A stretch of DNA of 64,000 nt from Fidelibacterota bacterium (GCA_947472795.1 CANJBL010000013.1:3553-67552); one strand, 5' to 3'. Shown: positions 2,178-28,631, numbered from the stretch's first letter. Program-made: numbers and translations. Notes: generated from the sequence alone by a model not told the origin.

Positions 2178-3491
2178 TTAGTTAAAGAACGTCACCAGAT
2201 GCCAGTAAAGGCCAGACCCGGCCATTTCCCTGGCCGCGGCGGCATTGTCGCCACCGGTCACGGAAAGGTCGCGTTTGCCTTCCTTATCGCCGTACATGAC
2301 TTCGTGGCGATTGTTGCCCTGAATGTCGCCGGGCTTCTTGTCGCCAGCAAAGGTATAGAGCGCGCTGCCTTTATAGGCCCACTGCTTGCTGCCGTCGGCG
2401 CGCGCCACCACTTCCCAGAACCCGGAGGGCTGCGCGTTGGCGGGCGCCACGAGAGGGCGGTAGTCCTTGAGACAGTCGGCCGTGCAGCCACGCGTGCCCA
2501 CCAGCTTCGCAACGGCGTAGGAGGCATGATAGCCATCGCGCGCGTGACGGCCACCGTACTGCAGCTTGTAGCGCGAGACCGTGTAGAGCGAGAGGCCCTT
2601 AGCGTTGGTCATCACCGGCCCGCGATAGGGCAGGATATCCACCGCCACCGACGGCGGGGTGTAGTGCTCGAAAGCCAACGCCGGCTTCGCGTCTTTCTCG
2701 GCAAGGATGCCGTTCAAGTCCGTATCGGAATAATCACCGCTGAACGTGTAAAGACGCTGACCTTTGTAGGCCCACTGTGTGGTGCCGTCTTCCCGCGTGG
2801 CCAGCGTAAAATCACCGATGGGACGCGCAACGGCCGGCGCGTAGACCGGCGCCCAGCGCGCCGTATCCTTCGGCGGCGTCTTCAGGACGTAGGTGACCAT
2901 GTGGTTGGTGGATGAGATGAAGCCATACCCATTCGCAACGGCGAGGCTCTGCAACTCGATACCGGACGGGGTCGGGGTCGTCGACTCAGGCGTAAAGGCC
3001 GCGCGGCGCCAGCCCTGCTTCGGCGTGTTCACAGAACTCGCGGGATCGGAAAGCGCCTCAGGACCGCCGGCACGTCCGCCGCGGCGTCCGGGCGGCTCCG
3101 CGGTGGGATCTTTGCCGGAGTAGCGATAAAGCGGGCGGCCCTGATAGGCCCACTGCTTGGCGCCATCGGCGCGCGCCACCACGCTCCAGTCGCCGGAGGC
3201 AACTGCAGTGGCGGAGGCGAGCAGCGGCGGAAATTCCTTGGCGCATTCATCGTTGCAGCTGGATTTTCCCGTGGTCTCGTCCTTGTCATAGAAATAGAGC
3301 GGGTTGCCCGTAGCGTCGCCAAGACGGCGCCACAAGAATTTGTCGCCGGCGTTGGTCACATCGACAAGCGTGATGCCCACAGGCGTTGAGGCGGGCGCTG
3401 CGTTCTTGTCAGCTGCCGCAGCCCCTGTGGCCAGCGCGAGGCTTATCGCCGTGAACCCGGCCGCATGGAGAAGTGTGGTTTTCATGAGCAT
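2178..3491 (-). CDS. secreted repeat protein, COG4315/Lipoprotein_15-like (Yx[FWY]xxD repeats)
   Basis: Signal peptide MKTTLLHAAGFTAISLALATGAAAA. Four repeats of the type WAY(Q/K)G.PLY.(Y/F)(S/A)GD are typical of the PF03640 'secreted repeat of unknown function'. Start is uncertain (GTG 3503, ATG 3491 or ATG 3485). Confidence 0.75.
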   Translation of the reverse strand: MLMKTTLLHAAGFTAISLALATGAAAADKNAAPASTPVGITLVDVTNAGDKFLWRRLGDATGNPLYFYDKDETTGKSSCNDECAKEFPPLLASATAVASGDWSVVARADGAKQWAYQGRPLYRYSGKDPTAEPPGRRGGRAGGPEALSDPASSVNTPKQGWRRAAFTPESTTPTPSGIELQSLAVANGYGFISSTNHMVTYVLKTPPKDTARWAPVYAPAVARPIGDFTLATREDGTTQWAYKGQRLYTFSGDYSDTDLNGILAEKDAKPALAFEHYTPPSVAVDILPYRGPVMTNAKGLSLYTVSRYKLQYGGRHARDGYHASYAVAKLVGTRGCTADCLKDYRPLVAPANAQPSGFWEVVARADGSKQWAYKGSALYTFAGDKKPGDIQGNNRHEVMYGDKEGKRDLSVTGGDNAAAAREMAGSGLYWHLVTFFN

Positions 3492-3503
3492 GCTGTCCCC
3501 CAC

Positions 3504-4862
3504 CTAGGCCAAGACTTCGGAGATGGAACTGGTGACGCGATTGGAGCCAAAGCCCCATTCGCTGATGGGCACACCCATAGCCTGCTGCACCGTGAGGCCG
3601 ACGCGCGTCACCGCATCGCCCGACTTCGGAATGTGCATGCCGGTCTTCATACGCCCGTTGCCGCTGCCGATGGTGATGACCGGATAGTTGCGGATGGAGT
3701 GCAAACGCGGCGCGCCGTGATCGGTGTAAGCGAAGATGACCATGCGGTCGAGCAGCGTGCGGTCGCCTTCCTGGATGTTGTCCATGGTCATGGCAAAATC
3801 GTACAGCGCCTTCATGTAGAGGCTCTGGAACCAGGCACTCTTCACCTGGTATCCGAGCACGGGATCGATAGGCTCTTCGTGCGTGTAGGTGTGGTGATTG
3901 GTGGGATCGCCCTCCATGCGCAGGCCCGACATGCCGACGGTCATGGCGTAGTTCACCGAGCGGGTCTGGCCGCAGGCGAGCGCGTGCGCGAGAAGCACGG
4001 CGAACTGGTTGTGACGTTCCATGGCGTCGGTCGCCAGCGTCAGGGCCTGTTCTTTTTCCTTCTCGGGCACGCCGGGCTTTGTGCAAGCAGCCAAAGGCTC
4101 CGGCTTCTGGAGCTGGAAGGCCAGTTTCTGTTCCAGCGTGCGCAGCGAGGTGAAGTAGTTGTCGAGCTTGGCGCGGTCGGAGGCGCCGAGCAAACGCATC
4201 AGCTCCTCGCGTTCGTCCTTCACGGCCGACAGCACGCTGTGGCGGACCATGACGTCCGGATCGGGCGTGAACTCGGCCGCGTTGGGGTCCTTATATTCAG
4301 GCCCAAAGATGCGGGTGTAGAGCGCCAGCGGCGAGACTTCAGAAGGTTGAAGACCGGTATCCAGACGGCTGCTCCACGTGGCCTTGGGATCGCCCGAAGC
4401 CGTGCATTCGATGGAGCGGAAGCGGGTGCCTTGCGCGATGAGGTCGGTGATCACCGTATCAAAGCTGCCGAAGTAACCACCCGTGCTGGAGACCTTGCCG
4501 GTCATCATGCCTTGCACACCTGTGTAGTGCGTGCTGTTGCTCTGACCGTCGAGGAACACCTGGCCGCCGGAGAAGAGGTTCATCTTCTTTTGGATCGGCT
4601 TCAGAGCCTGTAACTGGATTGGCAGTTCGTAGTTGGTACCGGCATCCTTGGGACGCCAATCGGCTTCCCCAAGACCTAGAGCCCAGAACCATGTGGCAAA
4701 GCGCGGCTGCAGCGGTGCGCCGGTGGCGGCATAGGCATTGCCGTTGTCGTTCAGCAGGCAGTCGAAGGTTGGAAGCCCCACTGTTATGGCGCTCCCCGCC
4801 ATCATGCCTTTCAGCACGCGCCGGCGGTTCAACATTCTTTCCAGAACGGATGTTGCAGCCAT
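3504..4862 (-). CDS. DUF1552 domain-containing protein with a Tat-type signal
   Basis: 452-aa ORF. The N-terminus NRRRVLKGMMAGSAITVGLP looks like a twin-arginine signal. The overall pattern matches DUF1552 proteins, which pair with DUF1592-family genes. It lies directly downstream of such a gene. Confidence 0.8.
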   Translation of the reverse strand: MAATSVLERMLNRRRVLKGMMAGSAITVGLPTFDCLLNDNGNAYAATGAPLQPRFATWFWALGLGEADWRPKDAGTNYELPIQLQALKPIQKKMNLFSGGQVFLDGQSNSTHYTGVQGMMTGKVSSTGGYFGSFDTVITDLIAQGTRFRSIECTASGDPKATWSSRLDTGLQPSEVSPLALYTRIFGPEYKDPNAAEFTPDPDVMVRHSVLSAVKDEREELMRLLGASDRAKLDNYFTSLRTLEQKLAFQLQKPEPLAACTKPGVPEKEKEQALTLATDAMERHNQFAVLLAHALACGQTRSVNYAMTVGMSGLRMEGDPTNHHTYTHEEPIDPVLGYQVKSAWFQSLYMKALYDFAMTMDNIQEGDRTLLDRMVIFAYTDHGAPRLHSIRNYPVITIGSGNGRMKTGMHIPKSGDAVTRVGLTVQQAMGVPISEWGFGSNRVTSSISEVLA

Positions 4863-21396: not shown

Positions 21397-21726
21397 ATGA
21401 CGACTCCGGCTATTGACCAAATCAAGAAAGACCTGAGCGAGAACGACGTGGTGCTGTTCATGAAGGGCACTCCGGCGGCCCCCATGTGCGGCTTCTCGGC
21501 GGCGGTGGTACAGGTGCTGTCGCACATCGGCGTGAAGTTCAAAGGCGTGAATGTGCTGGCCGACAACGACGTGCGCCAGGGCATCAAGGACTTCTCCAAC
21601 TGGCCGACGATCCCCCAGCTGTATGTGAAGGGCGAATTCGTCGGCGGCTGCGACATCGTGCGCGAGATGGCCGAAGCCGGCGAGCTTCAGACGCTCATGA
21701 AGGAAAAGCAGGTCGCGACGGCGTAA
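21397..21726 (+). CDS. grxD: Grx4-family monothiol glutaredoxin
   Basis: VVLFMKGTPAAPMCGFS...WPTIPQLYVKGEFVGGCDI, with the CGFS active site. Confidence 0.95.
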   Translation: MTTPAIDQIKKDLSENDVVLFMKGTPAAPMCGFSAAVVQVLSHIGVKFKGVNVLADNDVRQGIKDFSNWPTIPQLYVKGEFVGGCDIVREMAEAGELQTLMKEKQVATA

Positions 21727-21752
21727 GCCTTAGAGACAAGCTCGATAAAACA

Positions 21753-21786
21753 AAACGGCGCTCATGAGAGAGCGCCGTTTTTTGTT
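21753..21786. terminator. bidirectional rho-independent terminator shared by grxD (+) and cassette 1 (-)
   Basis: aaacggcgctc-atgaga-gagcgccgttt, with T-runs on both strands. Confidence 0.85.
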
Positions 21787-21815
21787 TGTGGTCTTTGAGA
21801 CCCAAATCATTCTTC

Positions 21816-22232
21816 TTATTCGTTGTACAGATGAAGCTTTTTCGCCTCCTCATCCGTAAAGTATTTTGCGTTCTTCATATCCGCAATGCACGCGCCCATC
21901 ATGTGGCCAGGCTCGTCTGGGCCATGCTGGCAGACTTCGAAGTCTGCAAAAACCGTATAATCCTGCTTCTCTATTTTCTGGTAAAGGTCCGGGAATTGAT
22001 CCTCCACATCTCGCCAATAGAGGCATAAGTGTCGCTTGGTGCCCACGGGCCATAATATAATGTGGCTATCTGCATACACGGTTACTCGCGCGTGAACTTC
22101 CCGGCACTCCTGGAGCGCATAGTCGCTAGGTCGGCAACCGATCTGGTCAGCGGCAAATGACGTCGTCGCGCAGAGTAGGCTGAGTGCGCAAAGACTGGGT
22201 AGAAAGCGGTTCATTGCTAGCATCTCGGTCAA
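21816..22232 (-). CDS. small secreted protein, candidate orphan immunity protein
   Basis: 138-aa ORF, AT-richer than the flanks. It has the signal peptide MNRFLPSLCALSLLCATTSFA. It is last in the cassette 1 gene string. Start is TTG 22232, ATG 22223 or ATG 22214. Confidence 0.6.
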   Translation of the reverse strand: MTEMLAMNRFLPSLCALSLLCATTSFAADQIGCRPSDYALQECREVHARVTVYADSHIILWPVGTKRHLCLYWRDVEDQFPDLYQKIEKQDYTVFADFEVCQHGPDEPGHMMGACIADMKNAKYFTDEEAKKLHLYNE

Positions 22233-22241
22233 ATTGAAGGA

Positions 22242-22757
22242 TTAAGTTTCTGCGGTCCTTATCGCTTTGGCTCTGCAAATCCTTGCGGGGTCGCGCAGAC
22301 CTGCTCTTCTCTCGCTCTCTTTGAATTCGTCTTTCACTATCTCATGCACGTGCTCGCGCATCGTAAAGAGAGCGCACGGCTCCCCATTTGTGCTTTCTAC
22401 CTGCTCGATACGGAGCAATCGCCACCCGAAGCCGTTGTGTGTCTTGAAACCGAACCTGAGGAGAAAATCGGGATTAAATACAGCAATATAGATCGCCTCT
22501 CCTTTACATTTGTCAGCCACGTTGGATTCGATGCAATCGATCAAACCGTTTTGATAGTGAAATGCGCGAATGGGAAAGTCCGTGGGATTATCAATAGCTG
22601 CTGCATATCCAATACCCTTACCGGACTCACCAACGGGGCTGAGATTTTCCATCAGGTCCAACACCGCGTCAGGCAGGTTCTCCATTTCTGCCGCAAGGAC
22701 GTACTGCGGCAGAAATGCAAAAAGTGCGGCAAAAGCGATGCGTGTGAACGGGATCAT
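22242..22757 (-). CDS. small secreted protein, candidate orphan immunity protein
   Basis: 171-aa ORF with signal peptide MIPFTRIAFAALFAFLPQYVLAA. Its ATG overlaps the upstream stop (ATGA at 22754-22757). Confidence 0.65.
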   Translation of the reverse strand: MIPFTRIAFAALFAFLPQYVLAAEMENLPDAVLDLMENLSPVGESGKGIGYAAAIDNPTDFPIRAFHYQNGLIDCIESNVADKCKGEAIYIAVFNPDFLLRFGFKTHNGFGWRLLRIEQVESTNGEPCALFTMREHVHEIVKDEFKESERRAGLRDPARICRAKAIRTAET

Positions 22758-23365
22758 TTAGCACCGTTGTTTTTCGGCTTCCATAGCATCGGCGGCAAAT
22801 CGGAGTCCGCTCCACTGAGATCGATGTGCGGAGCATCATCGCCGTCTTCAATGTCGTCGATGTCAGCTTGGCATTCGTCTAGAAGCCAAATGCCTCGCTT
22901 TCTCTCAAAAACAAAGTCGCAATCAAAATAATCTTTTGCCCAAGCTTCTGCGACTTTCACGTTGCCCTTCTCAGGCGCCAACGAAAATACCGCCTCGATT
23001 GAGCCATCGTGTACGTAGGTATTTACCTGCACGATCTCCGCCGCCGTCACCAAGTCGTAGTATGAATGTCCGTTGAGCGGGCCAAAGAATATATCGACAG
23101 CTTCTTCATCCATCAGCCCATCAACACAATGGTCTGGATCCGTGGGAAGACATTTCGAACGTGGCGATATGGCGAGAGCGAGAGCTTTGTCTTTGGTCTC
23201 GATGGCCTTTAGGAAGCACCCGATCGCCCAACCGACCTGCGACGTGACCAAATTATTGGGCACATAGCCTGGACACGACGCAAGCGGCGTACCATCGAGA
23301 TCGTCTTTCGCATACGATACATTCGAACAGAAAAGTACCGCAATGATGAGGATGCAAAATTTCAT
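22754..23365 (-). CDS. secreted protein, candidate cognate immunity protein for the M23 toxin
   Basis: 203-aa ORF with signal peptide MKFCILIIAVLFCSNVSYA. Its ATG overlaps the toxin stop (ATGA at 23362-23365). Low GC. Confidence 0.65.
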   Translation of the reverse strand: MKFCILIIAVLFCSNVSYAKDDLDGTPLASCPGYVPNNLVTSQVGWAIGCFLKAIETKDKALALAISPRSKCLPTDPDHCVDGLMDEEAVDIFFGPLNGHSYYDLVTAAEIVQVNTYVHDGSIEAVFSLAPEKGNVKVAEAWAKDYFDCDFVFERKRGIWLLDECQADIDDIEDGDDAPHIDLSGADSDLPPMLWKPKNNGAK

Positions 23366-24267
23366 GGCCTTCCTAGCCAGCCGAGATCTTCAAATATAAG
23401 GTTGGGATCTTCAACGCGGCTACCGCGTGTTGCCGGCGCATCGGGCGTTCCCGGGCGATATGTAAAGTGAAGATGCGGGCCAGTCCCTTCACCCGAGCCG
23501 TTTGTGAATCCAATCTGGCTTCCAGCCGCGACATCCTGACCTACTTTCAGTCCACCGACCGCCCTAGTGTGGGCGTAGCCATACAGATTGCCAGACGCGT
23601 CTCTAATCGTAATGTAGTTGCCGCTTTTAGAATCTTTTCCAATCTCCACCACCTTACCACCAACAACGCTTCGAATGGGTTGATTGGGACGAGAACAAAG
23701 GTCCACGCCGTTGTGAGGAACCGGCCTATTTTCAGTACTGCCGAAATCGTCGCCGCCAATTATCGCACCATTTATCGTCGGATAAAACTTCGCCTGTGTG
23801 CGGCTTTTAGGCAATGGCTTACCTGTGACAGTAATCCCTTCTGTCGGTGGGCCATCAATGACAACGGGCGACCCGCCACCACCCCCAGTGTCCACCCGCC
23901 CTGCGCCGACCTCATCATAGCCGGGTGAGGAAAATGAGCCGGAGTCCACGTAGGGGGAACCAATGGTCGTAACGGATTCCCCGTTGTCGGTGAAACCGTC
24001 GTAAGAGCCCTCGAACTCCGGCAGTCCAGTGTTCGGGTTAATGCGGTTCTTGCGGCTGCCGATGCGCAAAGAGTCGAAAGGTATGTTGTTGGCTGCGGCG
24101 GCCTGGCGGAGAAGGGAAAGAAGTTCCGGGGTTTGCAGAAACTCTGGGAGGATGATCTCGCCGGGCGTCAGGTGCGCGAGATGGCCGAAGCCGGCGAGCT
24201 TCAGACGCTCATGAAGGAAAAGCAGGTCGCGACGGCGTAAAGCCCGAGACACCTTCGGATAAAACAA
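23362..24267 (-). CDS. M23 (LytM-type) peptidoglycan endopeptidase toxin whose N-terminal module is truncated and fused to antisense grxD sequence (orphan, possibly silent)
   Basis: The C-terminus has HNGVD (HxxxD) and GPHLHF (HxH), which are M23 zinc motifs. Residues 31-150 (AHLTPGEIILPEFLQTPELL...GGGGGSPVVIDGPPTEGITV) match the paralogs at 24968..25864 and 26662..27756. Residues 1-32 are read from the reverse strand of a duplicated grxD 3' fragment, and a terminator hairpin lies immediately upstream. Confidence 0.7.
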   Translation of the reverse strand: MFYPKVSRALRRRDLLFLHERLKLAGFGHLAHLTPGEIILPEFLQTPELLSLLRQAAAANNIPFDSLRIGSRKNRINPNTGLPEFEGSYDGFTDNGESVTTIGSPYVDSGSFSSPGYDEVGAGRVDTGGGGGSPVVIDGPPTEGITVTGKPLPKSRTQAKFYPTINGAIIGGDDFGSTENRPVPHNGVDLCSRPNQPIRSVVGGKVVEIGKDSKSGNYITIRDASGNLYGYAHTRAVGGLKVGQDVAAGSQIGFTNGSGEGTGPHLHFTYRPGTPDAPATRGSRVEDPNLIFEDLGWLGRP

Positions 24268-24299
24268 AACGGCGCTCCAAGAGAGCGCCGTTTTTATTT
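24172..24299 (+). repeat. duplicated copy of the grxD 3' end plus its terminator (direct repeat of 21658..21786)
   Basis: 69 nt (gtgcgcgagatggccgaagccggcgagcttcagacgctcatgaaggaaaagcaggtcgcgacggcgtaa) are identical to 21658-21726. A diverged ~20-nt spacer follows. The terminator hairpin aaaacggcgctc-caaga-gagcgccgttttt then follows. Confidence 0.95.
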
Positions 24300-24314
24300 G
24301 GCTTCGTACGCAGA

Positions 24315-24986
24315 CTAATTAAGTGGTTTAAGCGCCGACGTTACCTTCTCAAGCAATTCATCGGCGGCATTCTTGTTCTTGATATGCACGTACGATGCGA
24401 CCGTATATCCACGCCCACCATTTTTGTAAGCAGGATCAGGACGGTATGCGAGAAAAGCCTTCGAGTATCTGTCATAGGCCACATCCTCACGCGTGCAGGC
24501 GACGGTATTTAAACCCATGATGCGTGTTCCTGCGGACGCAATTGACACCGGGGCAGTTGATGGACCTAGACCGCCATCTTTAGACGCCGGACGCGGGCTT
24601 TTGCAGTACGGCTTGCCTACGTAGTCAATGTAGTCATCCAGGGTTTCAACGACGAGCGGCGTATCAAGATATGGGGCGATGACGACAAAGTCGGGTTTGT
24701 CGTCATCGCTCGTACCCATTTTAAGATTCTCACACCCGATTTCTCTGTCCAGCAACACATAGAACCAAAGATCGCTCGAATAACTGTTTGCAATGCTGCA
24801 GACACGAAACCCATCCGGAAGTTTCTCTATTCGAATATTATTTCTGTCGAAGTCATATGGCAGCTCAACGGGGGCCCAATGCGGACGTGGCTCTTTGCCA
24901 CCCAAATCAGCTGCAATAGTTTGTGATATCCAAATCACCACGAACAAACCAAGAAGAACAGCAAGCCTCAATGTCCCTGCTCCCAT
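24315..24986 (-). CDS. secreted or membrane-anchored protein, candidate immunity protein for the glucosaminidase-like toxin
   Basis: 223-aa ORF. N-terminal hydrophobic segment LRLAVLLGLFVVIWISQTIAA. It overlaps the toxin 3' end by 19 nt. Low GC. Confidence 0.65.
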   Translation of the reverse strand: MGAGTLRLAVLLGLFVVIWISQTIAADLGGKEPRPHWAPVELPYDFDRNNIRIEKLPDGFRVCSIANSYSSDLWFYVLLDREIGCENLKMGTSDDDKPDFVVIAPYLDTPLVVETLDDYIDYVGKPYCKSPRPASKDGGLGPSTAPVSIASAGTRIMGLNTVACTREDVAYDRYSKAFLAYRPDPAYKNGGRGYTVASYVHIKNKNAADELLEKVTSALKPLN

Positions 24987-25864
24987 ATGGGCAAACGGTT
25001 ATTAACTGTATCGATCGCGCCTCTGATTAGGTCCGTGTAGCCGCTATGATTATTATACATATTATTGGGGTCCTCCCCCAACTCTCTCATAAAATCATCT
25101 AGGTTGCTCTTGCCCTGTAAGCGGTTGAAAAATTGAGTACCTCTAAACGCGTCAATTGAAGCCTGATTCGTCGGATAGCTATAGGGCTTCTCATTCGCAT
25201 CACTCAGTCCAAATAAATTATTTTTCTTAGACTGACCCCAAGCGCTTTCATGAGCGGCGAGGCCAAGAATGAAATTTGGAGGTACCTTCATCTCATTTGC
25301 TAGCGCGGTGAGAGGACCAGTATATGACCTGAAGAACGCATTCACGTGTGGCGGATTTAAGCTTTTTGGGGTTACCGTAATCCCCTCTGTCGGCGGGCCA
25401 GGAACGACATATGGTTGCCCACCGCCGCCGCCCGTGTCCACTTGCCCGCCGCTGACCAAATCAAAGCCGGGTGAGGAAAATGAACCGGAGTCCACGTAGG
25501 GCGAACCAATGGTCGCAACGGATTCCCCGTTGTCGGTGAAACCGTCGTAAGAGCCCTCGAACTCCGGCAGTCCAGCGTTCGGGTTAATGCGGTTCTTGCG
25601 GCTGCCGATGCGCAAAGAGTCGAAAGGTATGTTGTTGGCCGCAGCTGCCTGGCGCAGAAGGGAGAGAAGTTCTGGGGTTTGCAGAAACTCCGGGAGGATG
25701 ATCTCGCCGGGCGTCAGATGCGCCATCTCGGTGTCGCCACCACGGCCCTGGGCAGCGAGGGCCTTGGCCTGACGGGCGCGTTCCTTCTGGCGCTTTTTCT
25801 CGAGGGCTACGGCCTGCTCGCGCGTCAACGCGCCGGGGCTGTTGTTGCGGAAGAGTTCGGTCAT
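24968..25864 (-). CDS. polymorphic toxin: conserved N-terminal module fused to a glucosaminidase/muramidase-like (FlgJ C-terminal type) peptidoglycan glycosidase domain
   Basis: 298 aa with an AAGGAG RBS. Residues 1-165 are shared with 26662..27756. The C-terminal ...ILGLAAHESAWGQSKKNNLFG... resembles the catalytic-Glu block of Glucosaminidase (PF01832) domains. No signal peptide. Confidence 0.8.
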   Translation of the reverse strand: MTELFRNNSPGALTREQAVALEKKRQKERARQAKALAAQGRGGDTEMAHLTPGEIILPEFLQTPELLSLLRQAAAANNIPFDSLRIGSRKNRINPNAGLPEFEGSYDGFTDNGESVATIGSPYVDSGSFSSPGFDLVSGGQVDTGGGGGQPYVVPGPPTEGITVTPKSLNPPHVNAFFRSYTGPLTALANEMKVPPNFILGLAAHESAWGQSKKNNLFGLSDANEKPYSYPTNQASIDAFRGTQFFNRLQGKSNLDDFMRELGEDPNNMYNNHSGYTDLIRGAIDTVNNRLPIWEQGH

Positions 25865-25960
25865 GGGAAGCGTGCTCCTTTTCTAAAAACAAAAGCAGCT
25901 TCCGTCATAGAATTATCGCGCCTCGCCGCCAATCCGTGCGGCCGCTGTTCCGCCCGCTTT
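25865..25960 (-). promoter_or_regulatory. conserved 5' leader/promoter block of the toxin genes, with a hairpin covering the Shine-Dalgarno
   Basis: About 95 nt nearly identical to 27757..27850. On the mRNA strand it reads GGAAGCUGCUUUU-GUUUUUAG-AAAAGGAGCACGCUUCC and ends 1 nt before the AUG (25866..25903). Confidence 0.55.
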
Positions 25961-25971
25961 TCAAGTTATCC

Positions 25972-26014
25972 AAAAACAAAACGGCGCTCTGTTGAGAGCC
26001 CCGTTCTTTGTTTC
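25972..26014. terminator. third, slightly degenerate copy of the AAAACAAAACGGCGCTC...CCGTT terminator; ends cassette 3
   Basis: caaaaacaaaacggcgctct-gttgag-agccccgttctttgttt has one stem mismatch and a U-run on the minus strand downstream of the stop at 26053. Confidence 0.7.
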
Positions 26015-26052
26015 AAGAAAAAGGTCAATAATTGCGACAGCATAGTGTTTGG

Positions 26053-26619
26053 CTATGAACAGCCCTCGATAAGGCGAATAGCATCCGGCGTTCCAGAGCG
26101 GAAAGTTGTTACTTTATTGTCGTTTGTCTCAAACAGGAGACCACGTTGCATGTCGCTCCGAAGCACTTCCAAATAGTGGCCCGCTTCTTCGAGATAGGGG
26201 TGAGGAGATATCTCCACTTTGGCGCCATAGCCTTCCTTAATCTGCTCTTCCGTCGATCCAACCCGAATACCCTTCTCTGTAGAAATGTATGGATCGACAG
26301 TCTCGGTCTTTCCGAGTTCACGCTCCTCGATATCGATCCGCACAATCTCATTGTCTTGGACCATGTAATAGACCTGAGGATCAACACCATCTGCACGATG
26401 GGCGTACCAACAACTATCTTCTTCAAAGTCGAGCTTGGGGCTAAACTTCGCGCCAAGTGCTTCCTCTGCTTGACTGGGCGTCATCCCGATGCGCACCGGC
26501 CCTAACCCGTCGAAGGTTAGGATTTGGTCCGGCGTGTTCTCGGCCTCCAAAGCGGCATGCGATAGCGCGCAACACGCGAGAGAAGCAGCCGCGAGAACCT
26601 TGATCGATGTGCTTAACAT
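26053..26619 (-). CDS. secreted protein, candidate immunity protein for the LAS/MepA-like toxin
   Basis: 188-aa ORF with signal peptide MLSTSIKVLAAASLACCALSHA. It lies 42 nt downstream of the toxin stop. Low GC. Confidence 0.65.
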   Translation of the reverse strand: MLSTSIKVLAAASLACCALSHAALEAENTPDQILTFDGLGPVRIGMTPSQAEEALGAKFSPKLDFEEDSCWYAHRADGVDPQVYYMVQDNEIVRIDIEERELGKTETVDPYISTEKGIRVGSTEEQIKEGYGAKVEISPHPYLEEAGHYLEVLRSDMQRGLLFETNDNKVTTFRSGTPDAIRLIEGCS

Positions 26620-26661
26620 GGCACTGCAATCCCTTTCGCTACCTAGCGATGCCTCTATATA

Positions 26662-27756
26662 TCACGGGTGCCAGTAGGGATCGACTTCGACATGGATATG
26701 GTCATCGTGGCCGCCCAACGGCGTAACTCCTGCAATGTTAGGATCATTGAAGAATATATTTCTTACTCCTCCCGTTGCGCGCAGAATATCAATCAGCGCT
26801 TGCGTTGCGTTTCGGTCATAGTTGGGGTCTTTCCATGTGGTGCCCGGGACTTGTTGACCGTCACTCCTGACCGGCCTGATGTCGATGCTCGTACCGTTCG
26901 CTTGATGGCCGGTATGACCGTACGGGGATCCGTCTTCTAAACTCATATTTCCCGCGCCGAATGGCTTTGCGCCCGTTGCACTCCATTGTTTACCCGCTTC
27001 ATTGATAAGATTGACTGCGGCCGGCACGCCATATTGAGCCTGTCTAGGTCCACCTCTACGGCCAGGGCCTGGTGTTCCGTAATTATAATATCCGCTAGCC
27101 GGCGTGCCCTGAGGCAGCTGCATGAAACCCGGAAGCGGCGTCGCTTTCACCGTAATCCCTTCTGTCGGTGGGCCATCGATGACAAGGGGCGGCCCACCAC
27201 CACCGCCGTTGTCAGCCTGTGGCGCGCCAATCAGATTAAAGCCGTTCCCAGAAAATGAGCCGCCGTTCTGGAAGGGCGAACCCGTTACCGTCACGCCGTC
27301 CATGCCCGCCCCGTTGCTGGCGAACGGTGGAGCAATGTTGAGTTGTCCAGGGTCCAGGAAGCTGCTGATATCCGGGAGATTACTGAGGCCCGGAAGGTCG
27401 TCGAACGTGGGGATGTAAAAAGACTCGCGATCGTAGTCGGTGTAGTAGTCGAACTCCGGCAGGCCTGTATTGGGGTTAATGCGGTTCTTGCGGCTGCCGA
27501 TGCGCAAAGAGTCGAAAGGTATGTTGTTGGCCGCGGCTGCCTGGTGCAGAAGGGAGAGAAGTTCCGGGGTTTGCAGAAACTCGGGGAGGATGATCTCGCC
27601 AGGCGTCAGGTGCGCGAGTTCAGTATCGCCGCCCCTGCCTTGAGCAGCGAGCGCCTTGGCTTGGCGGGCGCGCTCCTTCGCGCGTTTCTTCTCAAGCTCC
27701 ACGGCTTGCTCGCGCGTCAGGGCACCGGGGCTGTTGTTGCGGAAGAGTTCGGTCAT
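26662..27756 (-). CDS. polymorphic toxin: conserved N-terminal module fused to a LAS-superfamily (MepA/peptidase M74- or M15-like) murein endopeptidase domain
   Basis: 364 aa. Residues 1-102 are ~95% identical to 24968..25864. It carries the same GGGGGPPLVIDGPPTEGITV junction. The C-terminal HTGHQANGTSIDI (HxxxxxxD) and GGHDDHIHVEV (HxH) match LAS zinc-peptidase motifs as in MepA. Confidence 0.8.
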   Translation of the reverse strand: MTELFRNNSPGALTREQAVELEKKRAKERARQAKALAAQGRGGDTELAHLTPGEIILPEFLQTPELLSLLHQAAAANNIPFDSLRIGSRKNRINPNTGLPEFDYYTDYDRESFYIPTFDDLPGLSNLPDISSFLDPGQLNIAPPFASNGAGMDGVTVTGSPFQNGGSFSGNGFNLIGAPQADNGGGGGPPLVIDGPPTEGITVKATPLPGFMQLPQGTPASGYYNYGTPGPGRRGGPRQAQYGVPAAVNLINEAGKQWSATGAKPFGAGNMSLEDGSPYGHTGHQANGTSIDIRPVRSDGQQVPGTTWKDPNYDRNATQALIDILRATGGVRNIFFNDPNIAGVTPLGGHDDHIHVEVDPYWHP

Positions 27757-27850
27757 GGGAAGCGTGCTCCTTTTCTAAAAACAAAAGCAGCTTCCGTCAT
27801 AGAATTATCGCGCCCTGCCGCCAATCCGTGCGGCCGCTGTTCCTCCCGCT
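27757..27850 (-). promoter_or_regulatory. conserved toxin 5' leader/promoter block (copy 2)
   Basis: Near-identical to 25865..25960, including the SD-covering hairpin (27758..27795). Homology ends at about 27850. Confidence 0.55.
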
Positions 27851-28016: not shown

Positions 28017-28631
28017 TTAGCGCGAGTAGAATTCGATGACGAGGTTCGGTTCCATCTGGACGGGGTACGGCACGTCCTTCAGGCCGGGCACGCGCTTCAG
28101 AGCGCCGGCGAACTTGGAGTGATCGACGTCGATGTAATCGGGCACATCGCGCTCGGCGGATTCAGAAGCTTCCTTCAGGGTGGCGAGGTCCTTGGACTTG
28201 CGGCGCACTTCCAGGGCATCGCCCACCTTGACCATGTAGGACGGGATGGTGACGCGCTTGCCGTTGACGCTGACGTGGCCGTGGCTGACGAACTGGCGCG
28301 CGGCGAACACGGTCGGCACGAACTTCATGCGATAGACGATGGCGTCCAGACGGCTTTCGAGAATGCCGATGAGGTTTTCGCCGCTGTCGCCCTTGCGGCG
28401 CATGGCTTCGGCGTAATACTTGCGGAACTGACGCTCGGAGATGTTGCCGTAGTAGCCCTTCAACTTCTGCTTGGCCATGAGCTGCACGCCGTAATCGGAC
28501 GGCTTCTTGCGCTTCTGACCGTGCTGGCCGGGACCGTATTCACGCTTGTTGATCGGGCTTTTGGCGCGGCCCCAAAGGTTGACGTTGAGGCGGCGGTCGA
28601 TCTTGTACTTTGACTCAGTACGCTTGGTCAT
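28017..28631 (-). CDS. rpsD: 30S ribosomal protein S4
   Basis: [39 protein letters not shown]...; 204 aa. Confidence 0.97.

Follow-up and report, generated by a model that had tools for sequence, protein, structure and literature searches.

A grxD-rpsD island in a Fidelibacterota bacterium resembles an array of polymorphic toxin-immunity cassettes with a compositional step inside the toxin genes

Introduction

Polymorphic toxins and modular bacteriocins carry a conserved N-terminal region on unrelated C-terminal toxic domains, and in the bacteriocins 'diversifying recombination' yields identical N-terminal regions on different toxins (PMC5821083). We describe here an island of 6 kb on the minus strand of a 64,000-nucleotide (nt) stretch of DNA, hereafter the window, from Fidelibacterota bacterium (GCA_947472795.1 CANJBL010000013.1:3553-67552). 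The island is bounded by grxD and rpsD and holds three toxin-like genes (tox1, tox2 and tox3) that share an N-terminal part, which we call the N-module. We consider it likely that this stretch is an array of polymorphic toxin-immunity cassettes, in which a compositional step inside each toxin gene marks the edge of shared homology and the variable ends come from an AT-richer, exchanged pool.

The colicin M family and pesticin are the closest described bacteriocins. Like them, the island is predicted to encode proteins of about 300 amino acids (aa) with a swappable C-terminal enzyme acting on peptidoglycan or its precursor in the periplasm, together with an exported immunity protein and no dedicated secretion machine. 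In these bacteriocins the TonB box is placed in an unstructured segment rich in Gly, Pro and Ser (PMC3390615); in the island a TonB-box-like motif stands at the end of a linker, about 50 residues long, that is predicted to be disordered. Unlike in colicin M and pesticin, the motif lies in mid-protein and not at the N-terminus, the cassettes are arranged in tandem with a truncated orphan among them, and the immunity genes are co-oriented with the toxins. In Pfam, NCBIfam, PDB profile and Foldseek searches the N-module showed no likeness, in sequence or fold, to the translocation or receptor domains of colicins or pesticin.

Contact-dependent inhibition (CDI; CdiA-CT/CdiI) and Rhs systems have in common with the island a conserved upstream region, a short junction motif ahead of the variable toxin, an immunity gene directly downstream and 5'-truncated orphan modules. 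In CDI and Rhs systems the orphan modules keep a conserved stretch able to recombine with the full-length gene, and the variable ends are lower in GC. However, the proteins of the island have some 300 aa and not thousands, there is no CdiB or T6SS (type VI secretion system) partner, and each complete cassette comes with a leader of its own. The toxins (298-364 aa) contain no VENN, PxxxxDPxGL, haemagglutinin-repeat or YD-repeat sequence and have no Pfam match of such a kind.

The MuF polymorphic toxins of temperate phages (PMC5576092) combine a phage-associated N-terminal domain with variable toxins and immunity genes, and some relatives of the N-module likewise sit among SU10-like head genes. 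In contrast to them, the island toxins have no MuF (Phage_Mu_F) domain by Pfam, the island lies between grxD and rpsD and not in a prophage, and most carrier genomes are without the SU10-like cluster. Peptidoglycan-hydrolase effectors of the T6SS (Tge/Tae) and of the type IV secretion system (T4SS; X-Tfe) follow the same logic of toxin and periplasmic immunity, and the tox2 enzyme domain best matches 4kt3_A (see below). The island differs from them in that its genus has no TssC and its own genome no VirB4, PAAR, MIX and XVIPCD-type markers are missing, and it is the C-termini that are the variable enzymes.

Diversifying recombination, orphan modules and AT-richer variable ends are thus behaviour already known for polymorphic toxins and modular bacteriocins. 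What is new is an N-module that is widespread, unannotated and common to phage virion-type proteins, a motif resembling receptor TonB boxes directly before the enzyme, and a strain pair whose sole substantial difference is a conversion tract. The locus catches reshuffling in action, through that single tract and through a microhomology scar best read as an inter-strain insertion. The N-module, absent from curated libraries, links chromosomal toxin arrays, toxin cassettes in SU10-like prophages and phage ejection-like proteins, and the TonB-box mimic beside the enzyme offers a testable entry mechanism in a genus without T6SS. Lysin-bacteriocin fusions are being engineered as antibacterials (PMC12691632); should that entry mechanism be confirmed, nature already makes fusions of this kind.

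The cassettes and their C-terminal enzymes

The genes are transcribed in the order tox3, imm3, tox2, imm2, tox1, imm1, orfB, orfA. The tox3 gene (27756-26662) encodes 364 aa, tox2 (25864-24968) 298 aa and tox1, as annotated (24267-23362), 301 aa. In a full cassette the leader precedes an N-module some 100 aa long; a Gly/Ser linker, predicted to be disordered and closed by the junction motif, then leads to the peptidoglycan hydrolase, and a putative immunity gene with a signal peptide and, behind it, a terminator complete the unit. Coordinates of all features are collected in Table 1.

The three C-termini belong to unrelated peptidoglycan hydrolase families, namely M23 in tox1, GH73 glucosaminidase in tox2 and a LAS/M74-like type in tox3. 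The last assignment comes from a PF03411 match below the cut-off (E 6e-4) and from membership in the same BLAST class of C-termini as P0016 and P0024, which have PF03411. An AlphaFold (AF2) model of full-length tox2 gives a moderately confident N-module, a predicted local distance difference test score (pLDDT) below 50 for residues 104-150, and a helical domain from about residue 172 with pLDDT 92-98. Among solved structures that domain best matches 4kt3_A (E 7e-5), the effector chain in a T6SS effector-immunity complex from Pseudomonas protegens; GH73 enzymes come next.

All five small open reading frames (ORFs), that is imm1, imm2, imm3, orfA and orfB, have a signal-peptide-like start in their translations, and imm1 overlaps the end of tox1 by 4 nt. 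Homologues of imm2 (51% and 44% identical) lie 3' of tox2-like toxins in the relatives L016 and L047, and one of imm1 (36%) lies 3' of an M23 module toxin in L012. These co-occurrences support the view that C-terminal domains and immunity genes travel as units. Three traits of polymorphic toxins are therefore found at the locus: a conserved N-terminal region on unrelated C-terminal toxins; an adjacent, co-varying putative immunity gene, overlapping or next to the toxin; and orphan or truncated modules with extra immunity genes (tox1; orfA and orfB).

The DNA mosaic of the three toxin genes

Nucleotide alignment of the three genes gives an identity that differs by segment, so that several breakpoints, not one, are located within the conserved part. 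The 95-nt leader is 96% identical between tox2 and tox3 and codons 1-46 are 82% identical; tox1 has neither. The 170-nt core (LAH...PEF) shows 93-94% DNA identity in all pairs. The linker is 91% identical between tox1 and tox2, whereas that of tox3 is unrelated. Identity is 72-83% in the junction (G5...PPTEGITV) and 24-37% in the C-terminal domains, which is alignment noise. The original prediction, a reading of the sequence by eye, had called toxins 1 and 2 nearly identical over about 23920-24170 and 25465-25715 and unalignable beyond the junction motif, and the alignment agrees on both counts: the two stretches differ at 11 positions in 251 nt (95.6% identity).

The compositional step

In 200-nt windows the GC content is 0.44 at 24900-25299 and 0.465 at 22400-22599, as against 0.62-0.64 at 25600-25899 and 27500-27799. 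Along the sliding profile, C-terminal and immunity DNA lies at 0.44-0.48 and the N-modules at 0.60-0.64. At third codon positions (GC3) the flanking host genes stand at 0.81 (purL), 0.86 (grxD), 0.85 (rpsD) and 0.84 (trmJ), the immunity-like ORFs at 0.50-0.60. When each toxin is split at the end of PPTEGITV, GC3 is 0.72 in the N-terminal and 0.52 in the C-terminal part of tox3 (Fisher p 1.3e-4), 0.73 and 0.49 in tox2 (p 2.6e-5), and 0.69 and 0.48 in tox1 (p 8.3e-4). Set against 1,634 ORFs of the genome with 250 aa or more (median 0.736), the N-modules are ordinary (26th-44th percentile), while the C-terminal parts are among the lowest 0.3-1.2%; a within-gene drop of the same size occurs in just 0.1-0.4% of the genome's genes. 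The computed profiles thus bear out what had been seen by eye, namely N-modules in the codon style of the host and AT-richer C-terminal domains and downstream small ORFs.

A change-point search run blind to the motif finds the step in all three toxins (permutation p at most 0.004). It falls after codon 166 of tox3 (support 155-221; motif end at codon 203), after codon 147 of tox2 (support 112-161, about position 25423; motif end at codon 164) and 13 codons ahead of the motif end in tox1, that is, 13-37 codons 5' of the motif end across the three genes. The predicted break at the junction therefore exists, but it sits at or slightly upstream of the motif and not at its end. This places the junction motif on the AT-richer, variable side.

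A conversion tract between sister strains

The same island is present on two metagenome contigs, L130 (95.9 kb) and L131 (22.3 kb), that come from other samples and were assembled independently. Between L130 and the window 33 of 16,897 positions differ, and 32 of these differences cluster in the 190 nt from 25643 to 25832, in the N-module of tox2. At every one of the 32 sites the L130 base is that of the window's tox3 paralogue (chance about 5e-16). Differences between tox2 and tox3 on either side, at 25571-25580 and 25923-25959, are kept in L130, which sets the length of the tract at 190-342 nt. The remaining difference, at 24030 in tox1, is the base of the tox2 paralogue. Gene conversion between the tox3 and tox2 N-modules thus separates two otherwise identical strains. 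GC-biased conversion was considered for this tract and rejected, the changes from A or T to G or C (12) being matched by those in the opposite sense (14).

The grxD scar and the truncated tox1

A second event is recorded upstream of tox1, where a duplicate of the grxD 3' end meets the toxin in a 9-nt microhomology, GTGCGCGAG (24172-24180), common to both sequences. As annotated, tox1 starts at a TTG (24267), and from there the first 28 codons are the antisense of this grxD fragment, and not N-module. The join left tox1 without leader and codons 1-46, right behind the strong bidirectional terminator at 24266-24294. While the duplicated coding piece has 0 differences in 69 nt, the adjoining non-coding 58 nt have about 10 (p 2.5e-4), and the terminator alongside has diverged. 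A duplication in place would age evenly; this unevenness is best explained by two grxD-end alleles, a donor and a recipient. The scar is accordingly best read as a grxD-linked block whose insertion used homology at one end and microhomology at the other. An illegitimate join brought in a block of another allele type, and tox1 became a silent orphan behind the terminator.

The family in relatives

A word-based search gave 84 relatives, whose modules are joined to domains of many cell-wall hydrolase families (PF01832, PF01551, PF03411, PF13539, PF02557, PF00959, PF07486, PF06725 and PF15607), and a profile search gave 2,544 representative clusters (at 50% identity) among 1.84 billion proteins. 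At least 45 classes of C-termini occur among 114 distinct proteins. On an N-module tree the C-terminal class changes 50 times, compared with a minimum of 17 for full congruence and 67.7 +/- 2.0 for shuffled labels; the trees were built on about 110 residues. The incongruence foreseen by the original prediction is therefore present, and reassortment of the C-terminal classes is heavy but incomplete.

The compositional step is seen again in other genomes, where GC3 of the N-module exceeds that of the C-terminal part in 38 of 39 genes (means 0.70 and 0.50, host or flanking 0.67; Wilcoxon p 1e-11), and small downstream ORFs have a mean of 0.55 against 0.70 for the host. N-module GC3 tracks the host more closely (slope 0.55) than C-terminal GC3 does (slope 0.34). 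The hosts span GC3 0.33-0.81; the step is a property of the cassettes of the family and not the trace of one import. Distribution of the module is patchy: within the genus 14 of 27 genomes have it, within the family 2 of 10 further genera, and elsewhere in the order 1 of 24. Other cassettes occupy the same grxD/rpsD hotspot in L009, L010 and L011, and in L009 a fragment 62% identical to orfA adjoins grxD.

The window's own genome has two more module toxins, G000:C2:18023-18823 (L005 1501-2301) and G000:C5:33594-34358 (L004 1501-2265). One ends in Ntox44 (PF15607, E 4e-12), the other in an unannotated domain. The ORF that follows each of them has a membrane segment instead of a signal peptide, and both toxins lack a TonB-box-like site. 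The copy on C2 shows the same GC3 step (p 0.01), that on C5 a weak one (p 0.17).

Several loci come from metagenome-assembled genomes (MAGs) labelled 'Candidatus Marinimicrobia' (RH-...): L009, L011, L013, L016, L018, L024, L026, L032 and L047. In L009, L011 and L016, purL, grxD, rpsD, trmJ or an adjoining gene has 81-92% amino-acid identity to the window. Judged by these genes the three look like close alphaproteobacterial relatives, so their taxonomic label is probably wrong.

Origin of the mosaic

On the reading that we favour, the N-module would be the sole part common to the copies, and recombination between them would keep the N-modules near-identical and host-like in GC3. The junction motif, C-terminal domain and immunity gene would be DNA private to each cassette, drawn from an accessory pool that is AT-richer and exchanged horizontally, with no partner for recombination. 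Crossovers in the N-module would move units of C-terminal domain and immunity gene between copies, and could re-arm the orphan tox1.

Several points weigh against this reading. The searched relatives yielded no donor and no near-identical cassette in another lineage. With 36-51% identity, the best matches to the C-termini fall short of the 81-92% seen for housekeeping genes, so that recent horizontal transfer of C-terminal units is not established. C-terminal GC3 partly follows host GC3 (r 0.41), and decay in place without import could therefore yield the step. Toxicity, immunity, export and uptake of the island proteins are inferred.

The original prediction was that imported C-terminal and immunity units had recombined onto a resident N-module. 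Much of it stands: the recombination mosaic, the shuffling of C-terminal domains, their travel together with immunity genes and, at the grxD junction, the entry of foreign DNA. Grafting onto a resident N-module is the part that is not established. In that explanation the units would have been joined by recombination to an N-module already at the locus, whose near-identity would reflect one copy reused. The sharp end of homology with a GC3 step near the junction, the linker common to tox1 and tox2 despite their different C-termini and the reassortment of C-terminal classes on the N-module tree would all follow from it, and pyocins S1/S6 and colicins B/D, with common N-terminal regions and different toxins, provide an analogy (PMC5821083). 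Each complete cassette, however, has its own leader and terminator, so that import of whole cassettes followed by homogenisation of their N-modules explains the pattern equally well. Moreover, the events caught are an N-to-N gene conversion and an illegitimate join that destroyed an N-module; what is directly seen fits cassettes arriving with their own N-module and then being homogenised, rather than grafting. We give grafting a real, if minority, chance of being right.

Alternatively, nothing was imported. Old resident cassettes would have acquired low GC3 in place, their unique, fast-evolving and weakly expressed DNA escaping GC-biased gene conversion and codon selection while the recombining N-module stayed GC-rich. 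A step found in 38 of 39 relatives irrespective of host, and also within SU10-like phage clusters (in L027, for example, 0.80-0.88 for N-modules against 0.41-0.48 for C-termini), would be expected on such an account, as would the correlation with host GC3 and the failure to find a donor; the N-module does undergo conversion. Yet the patchy occurrence of the module, the varying cassette content of the grxD hotspot among relatives and the entry of DNA of another allele type at the grxD scar all speak for import, and the one observed tract lacks the base bias that the mechanism calls for. We regard this explanation as improbable.

An artefact of assembly or binning, with repeats collapsed or mis-joined, might be suspected in a 51-contig MAG whose locus holds repeats of 170-400 nt, but this is very hard to credit given that L130 and L131 show the same gene order, grxD fragment and terminators at 99.8% identity. 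Tandem duplication of whole genes, which the tandem arrangement and common N-terminal sequence might suggest, with C-terminal halves then diverging beyond recognition, is excluded by the unrelated families and different catalytic motifs of the C-terminal domains, to which unrelated immunity genes and an N-module DNA identity of 93-94%, incompatible with total divergence a few codons on, may be added; here the original preference for a mosaic was right.

Delivery of the toxins

The toxins presumably act in the periplasm of competitors. T6SS delivery was ruled out by the absence of TssC (PF05943) from all 27 genomes of the genus, the window's own included (other genera of the family score E 1e-137), and T4SS delivery by the absence of VirB4 from the own genome and from most carriers (8 of the other module-carrying genomes searched). 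TonB-dependent uptake of the kind known for pesticin and colicin M would agree with the disordered linker, the periplasmic targets, the putative exported immunity proteins and the absence of injection systems.

The genome itself encodes 30 TonB-dependent receptors, and their TonB boxes, such as VETITVTGSRI and TEEILVTGSRI, are similar to the junction motif. A position-specific scoring matrix built from 26 of these boxes has its best match in every toxin at the junction motif, with 14.6 bits in tox1, 8.2 in tox2 and 6.0 in tox3. The tox3 insert contains a second TonB-box-like site, GMDGVTVTGSP, whose score equals that of the tox3 junction. Sites of at least 12 bits occur in 25 of 114 family members (22%), in 18 of 122 independent members (15%), in 0.8% of genome ORF segments and in none of 78 viral module proteins. 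Such a site always lies 2-89 residues after the module (for example PDIEEIVVTAPRK and QLEEITITAQRP).

Entry via TonB, by way of the junction motif that closes the disordered linker, is nevertheless only a tentative proposal. About 75-85% of the family lacks a strong site, the tox2 and tox3 scores are modest, and the motif lies in mid-protein, directly before the enzyme; we know of no characterised bacteriocin with a TonB box in such a position. Delivery in a phage particle seems unlikely, and some other route takes what probability these two leave. The widest view would make the module proteins natural 'lysocins', a large undescribed family (about 2,500 clusters) of soluble peptidoglycan-hydrolase bacteriocins with no secretion machine, entering the periplasm of Gram-negative cells by a receptor-like TonB box set right before the enzyme, with an N-module from phage ejection-type virion proteins and reshuffled by N-module gene conversion. 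Taken as a whole, this is doubtful.

The N-module and phages

The 65-aa core of the N-module reads GRGGDTxxAH..GE..P...NPxTGxPEF. No Pfam, NCBIfam or PHROG family matches the N-module, nor does any PDB sequence (best profile E 0.24) or PDB fold by Foldseek (best E 4.9); in BFVD the sole match is one uncharacterised Caudovirales protein. The core is found in more than 366 IMG/VR viral contigs, where it heads Gly-rich proteins of 250-670 aa with membrane segments that match PHROG 'DNA ejection' and tape-measure fragments. A tblastn search of the module against 50,697 phage records (cultured phages) gave no match, so the link to phages is one made through IMG/VR contigs alone. Two other ideas about the module were rejected. 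A double-glycine leader (GRGG) was discarded as the same motif is conserved in viral structural-type proteins, and a Microviridae pilot protein, suggested by viral contigs of 4-6 kb, as their ORF content resembles fragments of tailed-phage tail or ejection regions.

Many viral module proteins (IMG/VR L080, L100, L104, L112, L116, L124) end in a second motif, GTxTSDDIPAMLSDGEFVMT..., which resembles GDTxxAHLTPGExVxP of the N-module and matches tape-measure PHROGs; several representatives have 2-4 module-like stretches.

Long-N variants that end in hydrolases, together with small 3' ORFs, occur in several MAGs of Rhodospirillaceae, where they are scattered among genes for SU10-type portal, capsid and terminase. 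Such loci, L027 (1-16207), L031 and L037, are SU10-like prophages or phage-like clusters (portal PF23899, E 3e-166; capsid PF17236, E 9e-80). The clusters hold up to six module toxins, each with a small ORF at its 3' side, among terminase, portal, scaffold and capsid genes, an odd site for toxin-immunity pairs. Dependence of the module on such a cluster was rejected, as just 2 of 17 module-carrying genomes have the capsid and four genomes of the same genus have the capsid without the module; within the genus, cluster and chromosomal toxins do not go together, though MAGs can miss prophages. No matching capsid gene was found in the window's genome. A 3.8-kb contig of that genome (C48) has a truncated SU10-type portal gene (92-1117, 341 aa, 43% identical) and a terminase C-terminal fragment (3456-3788), and at C7:153682-154314 a lone 210-aa homologue (50% identical) of a phage-cluster gene stands among housekeeping genes.

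Features of the island

Table 1. Features of the island and its host flanks, in window coordinates
Feature	Position	Strand	Evidence or remark
grxD, monothiol glutaredoxin, host flank	21397-21726	+	ORF, GC3 0.86; PF00462 on identical sister-strain gene
Bidirectional terminator hairpin, copy A, 3' of grxD and orfA	21752-21781	both	12-pair stem, T tracts on both strands; repeat family D5
orfA, signal-peptide ORF, orphan, immunity-like, without toxin partner	21816-22232	-	ORF, GC3 0.60
orfB, signal-peptide ORF, orphan, immunity-like, without toxin partner	22242-22757	-	ORF, GC3 0.55
imm1, putative periplasmic immunity gene for M23 toxin	22754-23365	-	signal peptide in translation; GC3 0.55
tox1 C-terminal domain, Peptidase_M23	23362-23824	-	PF01551 E 6.6e-20; HxxxD and HxH motifs; GC3 0.48
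tox1 junction motif TEGITVTG	23821-23844	-
tox1 N-module remnant: core from LAHLTPGE, linker, junction motif	23825-24180	-	alignment; 5'-truncated orphan
Duplicated grxD 3' end	24172-24240	+	69/69 identical to 21658-21726 (repeat D4)
Bidirectional terminator, copy B, between imm2 and truncated tox1	24266-24294	both	13-pair stem; repeat D5
imm2, putative periplasmic immunity gene for glucosaminidase toxin	24315-24986	-	signal peptide; GC3 0.50
tox2 C-terminal domain, GH73-type glucosaminidase	24968-25372	-	PF01832 E 3.8e-8; GC3 0.49
tox2 Gly/Ser-rich linker and junction motif TEGITVTP (25367-25390)	25373-25558	-	pLDDT <50 for residues 104-150
tox2 N-module, codons 1-102	25559-25864	-	GC3 0.73; holds the 190-nt tract 25643-25832
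Leader common to tox2 and tox3, including AAGGAG ribosome-binding site	25865-25960	-	96% identity
Third, weaker terminator copy, 3' of imm3	25973-26013	.	repeat D5 at 85%; 5-pair stem
imm3, putative periplasmic immunity gene for LAS/M74-like toxin	26053-26619	-	signal peptide; GC3 0.56
tox3 C-terminal domain, LAS-type (MepA/M74-like) metallopeptidase	26662-27145	-	Hx6D and HxH; GC3 0.52
tox3 linker with 39-aa insert, unrelated to tox1/tox2 linkers	27146-27450	-	MDGVTVTG 27280-27303; TEGITVKA 27142-27165
tox3 N-module, codons 1-102	27451-27756	-	GC3 0.72
tox3 copy of shared leader	27757-27850	-	alignment
rpsD, host flank at other end of island	28017-28631	-	GC3 0.85; PF00163 and PF01479 on sister-strain gene

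No Pfam or NCBIfam match was obtained for orfB. One type of terminator hairpin (AAAACGGCGCTC...GAGCGCCGTTTT) ends every cassette (21747-21787, 24260-24300 and 25973-26013), with loop and flanks that vary from copy to copy. In the leader, a hairpin hiding the Shine-Dalgarno sequence was considered and rejected: its fold z-score is -1.7, 12 of 200 shuffled sequences fold equally well, and the pairing is not kept in relatives. A promoter-like element (TTGACGCGA...CAAAAaTCTAT) lies about 35-60 nt 5' of the ATG in module toxin genes of the genus, namely at 25865-25960 and 27757-27850 in the window, at about 7830-7870 in L009 and at about 1430-1470 in L005. This shared element suggests common regulation of the module toxin genes.

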